Under the pieces are notes generated by a model. The model was not told the origin of the DNA. It saw only the letters and a program-made list of their open reading frames with translations, and made no database searches. Positions 2,237 through 12,073 of a stretch of DNA of 64,000 bases are shown here, in pieces. Both the position numbers and the translations under genes were made by a program. The DNA lies in the NCBI GenBank assembly GCA_944376795.1, contig CALWDW010000015.1, positions 2,127-66,126 of the forward strand, given 5' to 3'. Position 1 is the stretch's first letter; each line of letters begins with the position of its first letter. The stretch is from an uncultured Christensenellaceae bacterium (GTDB taxonomy: Bacteria; Bacillota; Clostridia; Christensenellales; UMGS416).

Positions 2237-3228
2237 CTAGCCCCCCAGCAGGCTTTGGTCGAAGGCGAACAGCGCCTCGTTGATCTCAAAAATATTGTAG
2301 TTGCCGTGGGCAATGAAGTACTCTACAATAATGTCAAACTTACTGGCGTGAGAGAAGGCAAAGCCCGCCTTCTGCAGCAGCTCCCGCGCCTCTTCCAGCG
2401 GCAGTTCCAGGGCCACGGCAAAGGCCATGGCGGTGGGCTTGGAGGGCCGGTAGTGGATGTCCGAGCGGATCTTGGAGAAGAGCTTACGGTCAATGTTGGT
2501 TTCTTGTAGCATTGGGCATCGGTCATGCCCAGCTGGTCAATCTTACGCAGCAGCATCTGAGAAAAGCTCTCATCCAACCTCCCCAGCGCCTCATCCAGGC
2601 TACCGGCAGCTGCATACGGCGCCGCATCCACCGCGTCCGGAATGCCGAGTGCGGCCATCTCGGGCAGCCGGCGCCTCACCGCCTCCAGGGAGTCATGCGC
2701 GTCCACATAGCGGTCATCAATATAGGCCGCGATGTGGGCAAAAAGGCTGGCCCCGATCTGGTAGGACGCCCGGTCATAAATCGCCAGGTAGACCGTCATG
2801 TCATGCCGGAGAAGAAAGTCCCCTAGGGTATGGACCGCCACCTGAAGCGCCTGGTCCTTGGGGTAGCCGTAGCTGCCGGAGGAGATCAGCGGAAAGGCTA
2901 CGGATTCGCACCGATACGCCTGGGCTAGCGCCAGTGAAGCCCGGTAGGCAGAGGCCAATAGTTCCCGTTCCCCATGCATCCCGCCGCGCCAGACCGGCCC
3001 CACGGCGTGGATCACATAGCGGCAGGGCAGGCGGTATCCGCCTGTAATCTTGGCGCTGCCCGTCCTGCAGCCTCCCAGGGTGCGGCACGCAGCCAACAGT
3101 TCCGGTCCCGCAGCGCGATGGATGCTGCCGTCCACCCCGCCGCCGCCCAGCAGGGTCTCGTTGGCGGCGTTCACGATGGCGTCTACCTCCATGACGGTAA
3201 TATCCTGGCGGACAATGTGAAGGGGCAT
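2237..3228 (-). pseudogene. Macro domain (ADP-ribose binding/hydrolase) plus C-terminal HTH protein, split by a -1 frameshift near 2498-2505
   Basis: ORF 2323-3228 begins with a macro domain (VDAIVNAAN...[10 protein letters not shown]...VIHAVGP...[15 protein letters not shown]). It runs into ...[24 protein letters not shown] and then Pro/Ser/Trp-rich junk. ORF 2237-2512, in another frame, continues with ...[46 protein letters not shown]..., the rest of an XRE-like HTH domain. No SD precedes the second ORF. Confidence 0.75.
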
Positions 3229-5930: not shown

Positions 5931-7615
5931 ACCTCATTGATCGGTTTACCCGGGCTGACTATGCGGATATGGCGGACTTTGCGGCCAACTGTCATATCCA
6001 TGTACCGGAGAATTTCAACTTTGGCTACGATGTGGTGGACGAATACGCCCGCCTCTGTCCCCAAAAGCGCGCCCTGGTGTGGCTGAATGACAAAGGGGAC
6101 GAAAAGATTCTGGATTTCGGCGACATCAAGCGCCTCTCCGACCAGACGGCCAACATGTTGGCCGCTCTGGGTGTGCACAAGGGCACCAAGGTAATGCTGA
6201 TCCTCATGCAGCGGTATGAATACTGGTATATTTCTATCGCCCTGCACAAGATCGGCGCCGTGCTCATCCCCGCTACCTACCAGCTGGCTGCCAAGGACAT
6301 CGCCTATCGCATCGATGCAGCCCATGTGGATATGGTAATCTCCGTGGGAGACGCCCACGTGGTGCAGGAGATCAACCTATCGACCGAGAAGACCTCCCGC
6401 CCCTTCCAGCGGATCTGCCTGGGAGACGCCACACCCGAAGGCTGGCTGAACTTCCACGCCCTGGCCGACCAGGCCTCCACCCAATGGACACGCCCCACTG
6501 GCATCGAAGCCACCCACAACAAGGATATGATGCTCATGTACTTCACCTCTGGTACCAGCGGCTACCCCAAAATGGCCGTGCATGACTTCACCTATCCGCT
6601 AGGGCATATTGTGACTGCCGCCTTCTGGCAGAATGTACAGGACGACGGTCTCCACCTGACAGTGGCCGATACCGGCTGGGCCAAGTCCTCCTGGGGAAAG
6701 ATCTACGGTCAGTGGATTGCAGGCACCGCCCTGTTCGTCTACGATTACGAGCGCTTCCACGCCCAGGATCTGGCTGAGAAGATTACCACCTGGGGCGTGA
6801 CCACTTTCTGCGCTCCGGCGACGGTCTACCGCTTCATGATTAAGGAGGATCTTTCCGCCTACGACTTCAGCAAGCTCTGCTATGCCGTAGTGGCGGGAGA
6901 GCCCCTCAACCCCGAGGTGCAGGCCCAGTTTACCGCGGTCACCGGCGGCATCCGCCTCATGGAGGGCTACGGCCAGACTGAATCCACCATCATCGTGGGC
7001 ACCTTCCGGTGGATGCAGCCCAAGCCGGGTTCCATGGGAAGACCCAATCCTAATTACACCATCGCCCTTCTGGACGAGGACGGCCAGCCTGTCCCCTACG
7101 GCGAAGAGGGGGAGCTCTGTATCGACACCCGCCACGGGAAACCTGTGGGACTCTTTACCGGCTACTATGAGTCTCCGGAAAAGACCCAGGAGCTTTGGCA
7201 CGATGGGTACTATCACACCGGCGACGTAGTCTGGCGGGATGAGGATGGGTTTCTTTGGTTCGTAGGCCGCGCCGACGATGTTATTAAGAGCTCCGGCTAC
7301 CGTATCGGCCCCTTTGAGGTAGAAAATGTATTGATGGAACATCCCGCCGTGCTGGAATGTGCCGTCACGGGGGTTCCTGACCCCATCCGTGGGCAAGCAG
7401 TCAAGGGTACCATCGTCCTCGCCCCGGGATATTCCCCCAGCGAGGCCCTGGCAAAGGAGCTGCAGGTCTATGTAAAGGGCAATACCGCCCCCTACAAGTA
7501 TCCCCGGGTCATTGAATTCGTGGAGCAGCTTCCCAAGACCACTTCGGGGAAGATCCGCCGTAAGGACATTGTAAAGGCCGACCGGGAGAAATACGCCCAA
7601 CAGAACAAAGGGTAA
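5927..7615 (+). CDS. AMP-binding acyl-CoA synthetase (medium-chain/acetyl-CoA-synthetase-like)
   Basis: 562 aa. The AMP-binding signature is MLMYFTSGTSGYPKM, with YGQTE, TGDVVWRDEDGFLWFVGRADDVIKSSGYRIGPFEVE and the C-terminal PKTTSGKIRR. Confidence 0.9.
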   Translation: MNLIDRFTRADYADMADFAANCHIHVPENFNFGYDVVDEYARLCPQKRALVWLNDKGDEKILDFGDIKRLSDQTANMLAALGVHKGTKVMLILMQRYEYWYISIALHKIGAVLIPATYQLAAKDIAYRIDAAHVDMVISVGDAHVVQEINLSTEKTSRPFQRICLGDATPEGWLNFHALADQASTQWTRPTGIEATHNKDMMLMYFTSGTSGYPKMAVHDFTYPLGHIVTAAFWQNVQDDGLHLTVADTGWAKSSWGKIYGQWIAGTALFVYDYERFHAQDLAEKITTWGVTTFCAPATVYRFMIKEDLSAYDFSKLCYAVVAGEPLNPEVQAQFTAVTGGIRLMEGYGQTESTIIVGTFRWMQPKPGSMGRPNPNYTIALLDEDGQPVPYGEEGELCIDTRHGKPVGLFTGYYESPEKTQELWHDGYYHTGDVVWRDEDGFLWFVGRADDVIKSSGYRIGPFEVENVLMEHPAVLECAVTGVPDPIRGQAVKGTIVLAPGYSPSEALAKELQVYVKGNTAPYKYPRVIEFVEQLPKTTSGKIRRKDIVKADREKYAQQNKG

Positions 7616-7672
7616 ATGTTCCATAATATAAGTCGCCCTTATATCGTTCCCTTCAATTTCAAATAACCAAAA

Positions 7673-7700
7673 GGCCAAAAACAGCTTGTTTTTGGCCTTT
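7673..7700. terminator. Bidirectional intrinsic terminator after the acyl-CoA synthetase
   Basis: GGCCAAAAAC (7673-7682), loop AGCTT, then GTTTTTGGCC (7688-7697). It is flanked by AAAA upstream and TTT downstream. Confidence 0.7.
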
Positions 7701-7714
7701 GCCTATGCTATGAT
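7686..7714 (+). promoter_or_regulatory. Sigma70-like promoter with extended -10
   Basis: TTGTTT (7686-7691), a 17-nt spacer, then TGcTATGAT (-10 at 7709-7714). It would start transcription near 7721, at the head of the non-coding unit. Confidence 0.4.
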
Positions 7715-7720
7715 GCAGAC

Positions 7721-8613
7721 AAGGAAAGATACCTAGAGAGGAAAGGGGTGATACCAATGTACAACGCAGAAGCGGAAACGCAGCCGCAATCCTCGGGCTG
7801 TGAGGAGAGTCCACTGGTATCATTACAGGCTGATTGACAGGAACCCCCCTGAAGAAAGCTGATTCGAAAGGCTTCCCAGGGAAACATAAGGTAGTTCCCC
7901 ATAAGCCCATTCACAATGGCGAAAGCCAAACCAGCACTTTCCCCACACAGTCCGGCCTGGATAAGAGCGTCCCAAGGCCTTATTTGGGTACTATGGAAGC
8001 GGTTCTCAGTATCGGTTCCGGGATGTTTAGGTAGCAGATGATGGATGGGTTCAGCTACAAGTTCCCGCGTTTCATTCCCGCAAATCCACTGCCATGCAGG
8101 GCGCGTGAATTGGAAGAGAAAGGACAGTTGGAACTGCAGTCGCTGTTGCATGATTGGATTCCAGATCCTGGCAGTTGGATCGCTGATCCCCTTCCCCCGT
8201 GACAGGAACGGATGACTGGGATTCCAACGGAAGCTGGCCACGCCAAACGTGTACAGCCAACGGACGGAATGCAGAGGATAAAGAATCAATCCGCAGGACG
8301 GAGTCAGATTCTTGGCCCTCGCAGCAAAAGAGGGCATACCTCCCATGGCCGTGCAAATACGAAGCAAAGACTGCACAGCATGTGGAGATGGATAGAGAGG
8401 CATTCTTCTCTCCCTTTCCTGGAGAAGATTCGCCGTTTACGGATAAGGTATGCACAGGACAGTACAAATCCCGTTCCCTATCCATAGGTGAGGCCGCCAA
8501 GAACCAAAGAGCGACCTCAGAGAGAAAAACCAATCGCTGTGAGAAAGTTCTTTTCAGGAAGAAAGCTCTCTCTCGAGGGATGGCATCCACGTCAAGGAGT
8601 GCCATCCCTTTTT
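7721..8613 (+). ncRNA. Candidate large (~0.9 kb) structured non-coding RNA, class unknown
   Basis: The unit runs from the promoter at 7686-7714 to the terminator at 8577-8613. Hand counts on sampled 60-nt lines give 43-55% GC against 60-68% in neighbouring genes. The + strand is purine-rich (75% in the first 60 nt). No ORF looks protein-like. GNRA-capped helices are GCG-GAAA-CGC (7772-7781) and TGGC-GAAA-GCCA (7917-7928). Further helices lie at 8031-8035/8054-8058, 8315-8320/8330-8335, 8404-8411/8421-8428, 8440-8447/8477-8484 and 8516-8524/8566-8575. Confidence 0.45.
8577..8613 (+). terminator. Intrinsic terminator (+ strand only)
   Basis: GGGATGGCA (8577-8585), a 14-nt loop, TGCCATCCC (8600-8608), then TTTTT. 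There is no U-tract on the opposite strand. Confidence 0.7.
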
Positions 8614-8813
8614 AGTGTCCCAAAGCTGTCTCCCGCCGGCAAGCCCTTCGCTCCATCCGTACACCCCCGCGGCCCTTATGGGGAAGTTCCCATGCAGAGA
8701 AGCAGAGTTTTTTGCACGGCGCCTGCAATGGCTCACAACGCTTGGCGGCCAGGCCCTCCCAGCGCCTCTCCCCTTGTCCCCATCCGCCTGTTCCGCCTGA
8801 TTGCAATACGGAA

Positions 8814-8850
8814 AAGGATCCCCGCAGGCAGGCTTCCCGCGGGGATCCTT
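8814..8850 (-). terminator. Intrinsic terminator of engB
   Basis: A perfect 12-bp stem, AAGGATCCCCGC (8814-8825) with GCGGGGATCCTT (8839-8850). The A-run on + gives a U-run on the - strand, directly after the engB stop. Confidence 0.7.
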
Positions 8851-8873
8851 GTATGGTTTTGGGGGGCCAAAAT

Positions 8874-9479
8874 TTACGTTTGGGACGACTCGGCCAAGAT
8901 TTCATCCAGCCGGCTGCCCAGGGCCTGCTTGGTGGCCTCCGCCGCCTGGGTGGAGACGATCACAGTGGGCGTGCGGAAGGTCATCCCTACCTTATCGGAG
9001 AGCTTAGCCGCGGCGCTCTTTCCCGCCGAGCGGCTGAGCTTGTCCGCCTTGGTGGCCACAATGGTGCAGGGGATATTATAGTGCTGCAGGTAGTAGGCCA
9101 TCTGCTTGTCATCGGCGGTGGGATCATGCCGGATGTCCAGGAGCAGCAGCAGGTGCCGAAGCTGCCGGGACTGGGACAGATACCCCTCGATCATGGCGCC
9201 CCAGCGCTCCTTCTCCGCCCTGCTCACATTGGCAAAGCCATAGCCCGGCAGATCCACCAGGTAGAAGGCATCGTTCACCAGGAAAAAGTTCACAAGCCTT
9301 GTCTTTCCGGGGGTAGAACTGACCTTGGCCAGCTTATTTTGGCCGCAGAGGGTATTGATCAAGGAGGACTTCCCCACATTGGACCGGCCAACCAGCGCAA
9401 TCTCCGGTAGAGGCGGATCCATGTGGATCCGGGACGGATCGGCAGCCGACCGGACAAACATTGCTTTTTTGATCTGCAT
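8874..9479 (-). CDS. engB: Ribosome biogenesis GTP-binding protein YsxC/EngB
   Basis: The start is trimmed to the ATG at 9479 (GGGGG SD 7 nt upstream). G1 is LVGRSNVGKSSLIN, G3 is DLPGYG and G4 is TKADK. Confidence 0.9.
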   Translation of the reverse strand: MQIKKAMFVRSAADPSRIHMDPPLPEIALVGRSNVGKSSLINTLCGQNKLAKVSSTPGKTRLVNFFLVNDAFYLVDLPGYGFANVSRAEKERWGAMIEGYLSQSRQLRHLLLLLDIRHDPTADDKQMAYYLQHYNIPCTIVATKADKLSRSAGKSAAAKLSDKVGMTFRTPTVIVSTQAAEATKQALGSRLDEILAESSQT

Positions 9480-9527
9480 ATTATAACCCCCATGGCGGGG
9501 CGCTCCGTCGGGAGGCCCACAGTCTCT

Positions 9528-9559
9528 CAAAACCAAATCGGGAACATGCATCCGTTCCC
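9528..9559 (-). terminator. Possible (leaky) terminator between lon and engB
   Basis: On the - strand, GGGAAC-GGATGCAT-GTTCCC is followed by GATTTGGTTTT. Confidence 0.35.
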
Positions 9560-9670
9560 AGCAGCCCGGCAAAAGAACCTGGTCCATTCGCCTGGCACAG
9601 GATATACAATGGCGGAAAAGCGCGCGGAATGCGAACTTTTCCGTCATACTGCGTATAAAGATTTTCACCA

Positions 9671-12073
9671 CTATCCGCGAGCCGACACGGGCCGAGGCGC
9701 CTTATCCTTCGCCTCGCTTATCGCTTTAAAAGGAACGGGCCGAGGCTGACTCTTGCCGTTGCCCTCCACGAAGGCCACCGAGAGCACCTCTTCCAGCGTA
9801 CGAACCGGTACGAAAGAGACTGCCTGCCGTACCACGGGGTCGATCTCCTCCAGATCCCGCAGATTCTCCGCCGGGAAGATCACAGTACGGTAACCCTCCC
9901 GGTGGGCCGCCATGGATTTCTCCTTCAATCCGCCAATGGCCATCACCCGGCCACGGATCGTAATCTCTCCGGTCATAGCCACATCCCCGCGGACCGCCTT
10001 CCCGGTCAGAGCCGAAAGTAGAGCCGTGGCCATGGTGATGCCCGCCGAAGGGCCGTCCTTGGGGGTTGCGCCCTCTGGCAGGTGGATGTGAATGTCCATG
10101 GACTTATAGAACTGGGGATCCAGCCCATATTCCTGAGCGTGGGCACGGATGTAACCCAGCGCCGCCGAAGCCGACTCCTTCATCACGTCTCCCAGGGAAC
10201 CCGTCAGTTCCAGGTGGCCGGTGCCGGGCATGGTATTGACCTCTACGGCCAAAGTCACGCCGCCGACGGCTGTCCACGCCAGTCCGGCAACCAGGCCCAC
10301 CGTATCCTCATGAGAGGTAGCCTCTTCCCGGAACTGGGGAATTCCCAGGTACTGCTCCAGATTCTTGGGCGTTACCCGAAGAGACTTTTTGCCGCTCTCC
10401 ACCAGGATGCGGGCGGCACGGCGGCATACCCGGCCGATCTCCCGCTCCAGGGAACGAACTCCCGCCTCCCGGGTATAGCCCCAAATGATGGCCTCCATCC
10501 CCTTATCGGTGATGGCCAGCTGGCTCTTCTTCAGGCCATGGAGCTTGAGCTGCTTGGGCAGCAGATGGTTCCGGGCAATGCGTAGCTTCTCCTGGTAGGT
10601 GTAGCCTTCCAGCCGAATGACCTCCATACGATCCATTAGGGGCTCTGGGATCTCCTCCAAGGAATTGGCGGTAGCCAGGAACATCACCTGGGACAGATCG
10701 AAGGGTACGTCCAGGTAATGGTCCCGGAAGGTATTGTTCTGCTCGCTATCCAACACCTCCAGCATGGCGGATGCAGGATCCCCGCGGAAATCATGGCTCA
10801 TCTTGTCCAGCTCATCCAATAGGAAGAGGGGGTTTGCCGTACCCGCCTGCTTGATCCCCGCGATGATGCGGCCGGGAATGGCGCCAATGTAGGTGCGCCG
10901 ATGGCCGCGGATCTCCGCCTCATCCCGTAGGCCGCCCAACGACATCCGAACAAATTTCCGTCCCATAGCCCGGGCTATGGACTTGGCAATGGAAGTCTTT
11001 CCTACTCCCGGCGGGCCCACTAGGCAGAGGATGGGGCCCTTTAGGGAATGGGTCAGAGAAAGTACCGCCAGGTACTCCAGCACCCGGTCTTTCACCTTCT
11101 CCAAGCCGTCGTGGTCCTCGTCCAGCACCTTTTTGGCATAGGCGATATCCTCTTTGTCCTGGGTATACTTCCCCCAGGGCAGCTCCAGGATCCACTCAAT
11201 CCAGTTCAGCAGCACGTGATAGTCTGGGGAAGACTCTGGCAACCGCTCCAGGCGGCTCAATTCCCGCAGCACTTTCTCCTTGGCTTCCTCCGGCAGCGGA
11301 AGTTCTTCAGCCTTTTCCCGATAGGCCTGGGCCTTCTCCTGGCCGTCCTCCCCCAGTTCCTGATAAATAGCGCGGATCTGTTCGTGGAGGAAGTGTTCCT
11401 TCTGCTGCTCGGTCATGGAGACCCGTACCCGGTTCTGGATGCTCTGCTCCAGGGTGACGATCTCCAGCTCCTGGTGCAGGATCGTCATAATGGTCTCCAG
11501 GCGCTGCTCAGGCTGGATGATCTCCAGCACCCGCTGCCGGTTCTCCAAGCCATGAACCGCATAGCTTGCCACCAGGTCTGCCAGCTTCCCCGGAGCATTG
11601 GCGCCAATAACCGTTAGAAGCACCTCCGGGGGAATCCGATTGGTGGCCTGGGCAAACTCCTGGAAGAGCTCCACCGCTCCCCGCATGGCTGCCTGTACCT
11701 GGGGATCCACAGCCGGCTCGGTAGAATCTTCCACCACCTCCACCAACGCGGTAAAATAAGGATCCCGCTGGGGGAAGGCATGGATGATGGCACGGCTGAC
11801 GCCCTCCACCAATACACGGATACCCTCCGCCGGATGGCGCACCAGCTGTTTAACGCGCACCACGGTGCCCATGGTAAAGAGCCCCTCTTCCGTAGGATCA
11901 TCCTGCTCGGTATCCCGCTGCGCAGCCAAAACCAGCAGCTGATCGTGGGCCATCGCCTCATCCACTGCGGCCTGGGAACGCTCCCGACCAATATCAAAAG
12001 TCATGCTCATCGTGGGGAATGCTACCATCCCACGCATAGCCACCAAGGGCATGATTTTCATTTCTTGACTCAT
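9671..12073 (-). CDS. lon: ATP-dependent Lon protease (endopeptidase La)
   Basis: 800 aa. It has the N-terminal LON domain, the Walker A motif GPPGVGKTS, and the protease motif [15 protein letters not shown] with the catalytic Ser. Confidence 0.95.

Follow-up and report, generated by a model that had tools for sequence, protein, structure and literature searches.

What occupies the 1258 nucleotides (nt) that separate the acyl-CoA synthetase gene (acs, + strand, ending at 7615) from engB (- strand, ending at 8874) in an uncultured Christensenellaceae bacterium? The question is posed by a stretch of 64,000 nt from contig CALWDW010000015.1 (assembly GCA_944376795.1, positions 2,127 to 66,126), here called the window, to which all coordinates refer unless a contig is named. 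The interval, 7616-8873, contains no open reading frame (ORF) with gene-like codon statistics. Only two gaps of this kind in the window are larger, and both contain plausible genes that merely failed a strict filter. An earlier inspection of the letters, referred to below as the original prediction, had noted that no gene explains the interval and had proposed that 7721-8613 specifies a large structured non-coding RNA or, failing that, a badly decayed foreign gene. The lack of an explaining gene is borne out, as is a GC content below that of the flanking genes: 51.7% in 7721-8613, 58-60% in the neighbouring genes and 60.1% in the window. The purine richness ascribed to the + strand is real in the first 60 nt of the unit (75%) and is not a property of the full unit (55% across 7721-8613).

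The answer that we favour, and to which we give about an even chance of being right, is that a conserved promoter and leader module is joined here to a species-specific non-coding tail. The product would be an orphan transcript and not the representative of a new conserved class of large RNA. The signals, the lack of a coding signal, the extent of conservation and the element-sized contigs are observed; a regulatory role for the leader and the lack of a separate function in the tail are inferred.

Transcription signals

An extended -10 promoter can be read on the + strand at 7686-7714, with TTGTTT at 7686-7691, a 17-nt spacer, TG at 7706-7707 and TATGAT at 7709-7714, and predicts a transcription start near 7721. 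The -35 hexamer matches the consensus at three of six positions only, and a generic promoter scan therefore missed the site. Synteny around EngB provides a comparison: the closest sequence, 89% identical, is carried by one Logan contig (L022, the only sister species found), the next is 69% identical (Christensenellales) and the remainder are lower. The counterpart promoter in L022, TTGAAT-17-TG-TATGAT, was picked up by the scan, so that the promoter first described as TTGTTT-17 nt-TGcTATGAT gains a homologous site in addition to our own reading.

The unit ends in an intrinsic terminator (8576-8613, + strand), recognized as an inverted repeat and in the predicted fold (pair probability 0.97), with a perfect stem of 10 base pairs (bp; 8576-8585/8600-8609) and a T-run at 8609-8613. 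It is specific to the + strand, there being no T tail on the - strand. A + strand-only terminator had been placed at 8577-8613 with a 9-bp stem, and apart from the length of the stem the description holds. Promoter and terminator thus lie on the same strand, as in an independent transcription unit, and the promoter is conserved in L022.

A second hairpin, a 14-bp perfect inverted repeat at 7670-7700, lies 3' of acs and overlaps the -35 element of the unit promoter with its 3' arm. The original prediction had taken it for the acs terminator (7673-7700). The hairpin is present, but it is bidirectional, has the better T tail on the - strand and is reported for that strand by the terminator scan. 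A hairpin terminator stands at the equivalent place in the ancestral-like spacer of a more distant relative, L026.

Element-sized contigs

At least 11 contigs in public assemblies are of the size of the unit (783-979 nt), and the protein cluster of the 231-residue antisense ORF discussed below derives largely from such contigs. Three of them were read: L034 (898 nt, coverage 80) extends from window position 8613 to 7729 and carries a 15-nt non-matching 3' extension, L035 (886 nt, coverage 39) extends from 8615 to 7729 and L036 (783 nt, coverage 3) from 8614 to 7830. The eight others measure 847-979 nt. A further contig, L010 from Logan, stops at 8611, so that the ends of four independent short contigs cluster in 6 nt at the terminator U-tract (8611-8616); L034 and L035 start at 7729, 8 nt downstream of the predicted transcription start. 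The contig ends at 7729 and 8613-8616 support the proposal of a self-contained + strand unit with ends near 7721 and 8613. P0130 runs into Illumina adapter at ~7746. Metagenome contigs of 31-67 kb assemble through the unit, which is therefore single-copy in this genome. The species, an uncultured member of the Clostridia, is represented by the metagenome-assembled genome GCA_947852895.1.

The nature of these molecules is indicated by their irregular ends. The extension that follows the T-run in L034 is CGTTGCCAGCGGTCA, of which 13 consecutive nt are identical to a conserved segment of 16S ribosomal RNA (rRNA); this suggests a chimera with rRNA and hence a library derived from RNA. Another contig, L033, folds back exactly at the helix of the 5' domain described below, with the geometry of - strand DNA whose 3' end has been extended after fold-back, and this is expected for first-strand complementary DNA (cDNA) of a + strand RNA. 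From the contig geometry we infer a discrete + strand RNA of ~890 nt, with the element-sized contigs as its cDNA. A literature look-up of the assembly accessions found no citing paper.

Such observations are difficult to reconcile with the interval being inert leftover DNA, either a decayed gene or a spacer, that yields no discrete transcript. Inert DNA could well be lineage-specific, lower in GC content, devoid of homologues and of codon periodicity and tolerant of insertions and deletions, all of which apply here. It would not be expected to possess a conserved promoter and a strong terminator, to give four contig ends within 6 nt at that terminator and 11 contigs of unit size, or to be less polymorphic than the neighbouring spacer. 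Useless DNA of 0.9 kb is, moreover, seldom kept in compact bacterial genomes. We regard this explanation as very improbable.

The conserved 5' domain

The original prediction overlooked the sole conserved part of the unit, which is a 5' domain of ~110 nt with a strong Shine-Dalgarno (SD)-like stretch and a 26-codon ORF. Searches with nhmmer and blastn align window positions 7627-7842 with L022 and nothing beyond, so that 7720-7842 (+ strand) is the only portion of the transcribed region common to another species. Over the first ~83 nt, counted from the -10 box, identity to L022 is ~82%, with exact blocks of 9, 12, 23 and 16 nt (TATGATGCA, CAAGGAAAGATA, GAAAGGGGTGATACCAATGTACA for the 23-nt block and GAAGCGGAAACGCAGC for the 16-nt block). 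As background, the engB DNA of the two species is 76% identical, with values of 85/93/48% by codon position.

The SD-like stretch, GAAAGGGGTGAT, occupies 12 nt at 7741-7752, 4 nt upstream of an ATG and inside the 23-nt block that is identical in L022; it is presumably complementary to the anti-SD sequence at the 3' end of 16S rRNA. The ATG opens an ORF of 26 codons plus stop (7757-7837, + strand), the translation of which is MYNAEAETQPQSSGCEESPLVSLQAD, an acidic and hydrophilic peptide. The counterpart in L022 has 29 codons and its peptide is 60% identical. No protein family matched the short ORF. Nucleotide identity between the two versions is flat over the codon positions (72/64/68%, counted by hand). 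This pattern suggests that the RNA or its translation as such is the target of selection, and the peptide sequence does not look to be under selection.

The SD-to-ATG spacer and the start codon are enclosed by a predicted helix, 7749-7762/7809-7822 (+ strand), which is seen as an inverted repeat and in the minimum free-energy (MFE) folds of both the window and L022 and which has a small GAAA/AGAA-capped hairpin inside. The 8 bp at its core, GTGATACC/GGTATCAC, are conserved in L022 apart from a G-U pair that is G-C there, the sole covariation-like change that we found. Short ORF, SD-like stretch and helix are present in both species, and a downstream gene is present in L022 only.

A working model can be assembled from these elements. 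The extended -10 promoter would start a + strand RNA near 7721 and the strong intrinsic terminator would release it at 8613-8616, at a length of ~890 nt. The functional, conserved part would consist of the promoter and the ~110-nt leader domain, in which a helix formed with the 3' end of the short ORF may enclose the 12-nt SD-like stretch and the AUG. The leader would then operate in cis, through translation of the short ORF and/or as a switch that sequesters the SD sequence. The downstream cargo would differ by species, being a gene of the ANT family ~0.5 kb downstream in L022 and 770 nt of non-coding sequence here. This 770-nt tail would be transcribed and would accumulate as a discrete molecule without sign of a conserved fold.

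The species-specific tail

In window orientation the order in L022 is acs, promoter, leader, 29-codon ORF, ~500 nt without ORFs, ANT gene and engB. The downstream gene encodes a 253-residue protein of the AadA_C/ANT (aminoglycoside-nucleotidyltransferase) family, and it is because the leader lies upstream of this gene that we read it as a cis-acting promoter/leader module. The ~500 nt between leader and gene (L022 positions 2700-3200) show no credible ORF or terminator and are unlike the window tail in sequence.

Relative L026, with an EngB identity of 65%, has the same order of cupin, acs and engB genes, and its acs-engB spacer is only 115 nt long and contains a bidirectional terminator; the entire interval is therefore a lineage-specific insertion. 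Other relatives have unrelated genes downstream of engB, and the representatives of the Genome Taxonomy Database (GTDB) found via EngB, at 51-61% identity, are too distant for comparison. Lack of conservation in close relatives, which the original prediction had named as evidence against itself, is thus what we find for 7843-8613, since L022 has unrelated sequence and the ANT gene in this place and L026 has 115 nt.

The body of the unit (7843-8575, + strand) showed no DNA or protein similarity to any of the sequences searched and has no codon periodicity. Similarity searches gave no homologue in L022, at 18 other engB loci or in plasmids and phages (no blastn match in the latter two). An exact 24-mer taken from the body was absent from both JGI metagenome and IMG/VR contigs, a result that rules out near-identical copies only, and a degenerate leader pattern had no match in the JGI metagenome contigs.

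Could the unit be a small mobile or multi-copy DNA cassette, with the short contigs marking repeat boundaries or horizontal transfer? The idea draws on L033 (3.9 kb), in which window 8585 to 7749 is reproduced with 99.5% identity and joined to two genes of 42% GC (positions concerned: L033 1-3042 and 3866-3938). The flanking genes occur in ~60-70 contigs, close members of their clusters (at least 90% identical) are named at NCBI as hypothetical proteins of Intestinimonas butyriciproducens and one of the two weakly resembles one unverified phage scaffold. The 15 nt of differing flank after the T-run of L034, the divergence of P0126 and P0127 into other sequence at ~7772 and a unit GC content of 52%, between those of the hosts, would also fit a cassette. 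Against this, both L033 junctions fall in hairpins, as is typical of chimeras: 8585 lies inside the terminator hairpin and the other junction is a fold-back at the 7749-7762/7809-7822 helix. This suggests that L033 is a chimera, with real transfer as the alternative. Neither terminal inverted repeats nor a target duplication nor an attC-like site marks the ends at 7729 and 8613, no transposase or integrase was found, the L022 homology is continuous across the left end and there is no match in plasmids, phages or IMG/VR. The unit is contiguous in the 31-67 kb contigs and so is no repeat in this genome, and its boundaries coincide with the transcription start region and the terminator U-tract. 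A mobile cassette is accordingly a distinctly improbable explanation.

Coding potential

Antisense ORFs of 231 and 177 residues are present as originally described, where they were dismissed as genes. The longer (ORF231, 7708-8403, - strand) is called by gene finders and has a good ribosome-binding site, and we have considered whether it might be a young orphan protein gene, possibly for a membrane protein, with the + strand signals incidental or antisense. Its length is the main point in favour, being unusual in dinucleotide shuffles (p = 0.003) and under a second-order Markov model (p = 0.022). In addition, GGGAG stands 6 nt upstream of the ATG, the stop codon abuts a terminator competent on the - strand and 8 of 11 single-nucleotide polymorphisms (SNPs) fall at third codon positions.

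The remaining evidence points the other way. Among 5.8 billion clustered proteins ORF231 has relatives in the same species only. The extra matches from a full HMMER scan of 1.8 billion representatives, to WD40 and PKD proteins, are an artefact; in the WD40 case one 37-residue WD40-like stretch of ORF231 was summed over 11 repeats of large proteins. There is no PHROG match. Codon-position periodicity is lacking, with a chi-square of 9.3 (p = 0.16), where equally long pieces of lon, acs, engB and the cupin gene score 65-130. The amino-acid composition is odd (C 3.5%, W 3.0%, K 1.3%) and the AlphaFold2 model has a predicted local-distance difference test (pLDDT) score of 37, too low for the model to be of use.

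Natural alleles are also informative. ORF231 is interrupted in L033 by a nonsense mutation (W81*, 8162 C>T) and in L034-L036 and L021 by 1-nt deletions (at 7967 and at 7882, respectively); P0001 has an inferred +1 insertion in a C6 run. Six more members of the ORF231 cluster begin at Met85, as would be expected if they had the W81 stop in common. Four independent disruptive alleles among ~26 contigs argue against a functional protein. The contig ends, finally, fit a + strand unit and not a - strand messenger RNA ending at 7670-7700. ORF231 is in our judgement a chance ORF, and its being a genuine gene is improbable.

An apparent signal of purifying selection on ORF231 (dN 0, dS 0.018 in three diverged strains) was rejected as an ascertainment artefact. 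The set L001-L010 had been collected through an identical protein sequence, so that only synonymous changes were visible, and the disruptive alleles come from contigs and cluster members obtained in other ways. The synonymous excess noted above is largely of the same origin: in an unbiased set 3 of 6 SNPs are at third positions, or 6 of 9 if L032, with 1.3x coverage, is included. The case is a warning about method, since contigs retrieved by an identical protein show synonymous variation only and a chance ORF can then mimic selection.

A decayed gene was sought on either strand, and no translated similarity tiling the region in shifted frames was seen. Pfam, NCBIfam and PHROGs gave no match to the ORFs of the locus, nor did Pfam to the frame translations. 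When the five remaining frames were combined in one query (that of ORF231 was searched separately), nothing was returned at E ≤ 1 among the 5.8 billion proteins, in a search sensitive to relatives that share 5-residue words only. No match to the region was obtained with tblastn and the L022 ANT protein. The badly decayed foreign gene of the original prediction finds no support in the six-frame protein search or in Pfam. No frame looks coding, and the unit is non-coding on both strands, possibly except for the 26-codon ORF.

Folding and polymorphism of the unit

Under the original prediction the whole ~890-nt RNA would be functional, a large trans-acting non-coding RNA that in the light of the comparisons above would have to be species-specific and might be structured, bind protein or combine two functions in the manner of RNAIII. 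The discrete full-length molecules, at 40-80x and without flanks, agree with such a role, and the survival of an untranslated 770-nt tail suggests protection. Its absence from L022 does not agree, as the body is missing there.

Comparison with Rfam gave no family in the 64-kb window at the gathering score and only noise at E ≤ 10 in 7500-9000; the L022 locus at E ≤ 10 likewise produced noise only, with no leader family in either species. The covariance models for OLE RNA and for GOLLD and ROOL gave no match at either level, no match was found in Rfam to group II introns, RNase P or other catalytic RNAs and the window contains no transfer RNA (tRNA) or tmRNA. The search that had been recommended, against all of these classes, is therefore negative. 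The remark that the typical neighbours of OLE, GOLLD and ROOL are missing was correct: there is no tRNA in the 64 kb and neither oapA nor a prophage among the identified neighbours.

The fold of the entire unit has a z-score of -3.4 against shuffles, which would favour a structured RNA were it not equal on both strands. Local windows of 150 nt within 7700-8600 on the + strand range from -2.4 to +1.9 and, terminators apart, flanking coding sequence behaves alike. The GNRA-capped short helices that had been listed as structure are therefore what chance would provide. Folding energy clearly below shuffles in a strand-specific manner was not observed, and neither were homologues in other species with compensatory changes.

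The natural variants take no account of the predicted pairs: at variant sites the mean unpaired probability is 0.23, compared with 0.40 overall, so that variants favour predicted paired positions. Twelve fall in predicted MFE pairs, and six of these disrupt the pairing. Two natural variants, 8483 C>A and 8575 G>A, each break a pair in one of the helices listed in the original prediction. Assignment to the OLE/GOLLD/ROOL class is not upheld.

The motifs GGA and ANGGA are mildly enriched in the unit (z ~3) and raised the idea of a sponge for CsrA. It was discarded, as the complement TCC (z 2.6) is enriched to much the same extent as GGA (z 3.0).

Within the species, 16 sequences show 19 variable sites in the 887 nt of 7729-8615, three of them 1-nt deletions, and the adjacent 258-nt spacer shows 10 in fewer sequences. 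Variant density in the unit is thus about half of that in the spacer. No variant occurs in 7616-7840, with one at 7608 in the low-coverage L032. In 8404-8613, outside ORF231, there are 1-2 differences per strain, compared with 2-6 in the spacer 8614-8873, which is the most polymorphic segment of the locus. On these small numbers the leader seems strongly and the body mildly constrained. The low density speaks for a functional tail, the tolerance of three 1-nt deletions in natural alleles speaks against it, and overall we consider a trans-acting large RNA unlikely, though the most probable of the alternatives.

Assessment

The promoter/leader module with a non-coding tail is the reading that we retain, and several observations weigh against it. 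The transcript is deduced from contig geometry alone (ERZ653160, ERZ652949 and ERZ653194). The 5' domain is known from two species only, which are too few sequences for a covariation test. The ~500 nt between leader and gene in L022 would be a long distance for a classical attenuator, and a terminator was not detected in them. L033, in which the unit is joined to genes of Intestinimonas butyriciproducens, is treated here as a chimera but may be a real transfer. Finally, the untranslated 770-nt tail is full-length and less polymorphic than the spacer, and the tail itself could be functional.

The boldest version of the alternative, that an abundant ~890-nt RNA unique to one uncultured Christensenellales-like gut species has a trans-acting role, whether with two functions, as a sponge for protein or in binding ribosomes, seems to us unlikely but deserves mention. 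The 5' module, with 12 nt of presumed complementarity to the 3' end of 16S rRNA held in a helix, would then be a new translation-control or 30S-binding element that is coupled to varied downstream sequences.

The significance of the locus depends on the contigs. If they are cDNA, the unit is a clear example of a bacterial RNA that is long, abundant and restricted to one species and that could be recognized from sequence alone in an uncultured gut lineage. Orphan RNAs of this kind escape discovery by covariation and hence their numbers and roles are hidden. Should the contigs prove not to be cDNA, what is left is a lineage-specific non-coding insertion of little interest. The 5' module is a concrete candidate for a portable promoter and leader, with a very long SD-like stretch, a short ORF and a sequestering helix, and lies upstream of a resistance-type gene in L022.

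Neighbouring features

The identified neighbours of the unit are the acyl-CoA synthetase gene, engB and lon, and the gene order that is also found in L026 is cupin, acs, engB. Outside the unit, the GC-rich spacer 8614-8873 (260 nt, 62% GC, C-rich) carries the engB terminator at 8814-8850 (- strand); ~200 nt of it are otherwise unexplained. The longest ORF for engB (8874-9671, 265 codons with a GTG start) runs past the lon stop. In other assemblies the product has 201 residues and starts at 9479, a length that agrees with relatives.

The C-terminus of the acs product is ~85% identical between L022 and the window, as judged by eye. Contigs L025 and L026 have identical EngB sequences; acs is intact (561 residues) in L026 at 6295-7980, and in L025 at 8612-10369 it is called as several small ORFs though the DNA aligns with L026, which implies a pseudogene or assembly errors. 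The GC content of L022 is ~46%, compared with 60% in the window, a large shift between close relatives in view of the 89% identity of EngB. At the start of the window, positions 1-1300 have a GC content of 39-50%, far under the mean of 60%, and include an ORF of 229 codons (624-1313) that is methyltransferase-like by eye. This segment is possibly a further foreign island.

Comparison with known systems

Large ornate bacterial RNAs are represented in Rfam by the OLE, GOLLD and ROOL families, structures of which have been described (PMC12286853). The unit resembles them in a length within the range 0.6-0.9 kb, in being non-coding, in its Firmicutes-type genome and in having its own transcription signals. 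It differs in that no model matches it, it is not conserved outside one species and it shows no excess of local folding; there is, in addition, no tRNA in the window, and oapA, prophage and tRNA are not among the identified neighbours.

With ORFan genes in lineage-specific islands the locus shares a lower GC content, restriction to one species and an ORF of 231 codons that has a ribosome-binding site and is called by gene finders. Unlike such genes, ORF231 has no codon periodicity and has natural knock-out alleles, and the contig ends fit the opposite strand.

RNAIII of Staphylococcus aureus is a dual-function RNA with a small ORF. The unit is comparable as an apparently abundant, terminator-ended RNA of several hundred nt that is lineage-specific and has a 26-codon ORF near the 5' end and a long untranslated 3' region. 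It differs in that no agr-like or quorum-sensing genes are among its identified neighbours, no C-rich anti-SD loops were identified in it and the peptide is not a cytolysin and is not conserved in the manner of a protein.

Inducible resistance genes provide a further parallel, since the erm and cat leaders and the integron aac/aad leader act through leader peptides or sequestration of the SD sequence. No Rfam leader matches in either species, the gene in L022 is ~500 nt away and the window has no downstream gene. The likeness lies in the short ORF with a strong SD sequence, in the helix that would occlude the translation signals and, in L022, in the gene of the ANT family that follows downstream.

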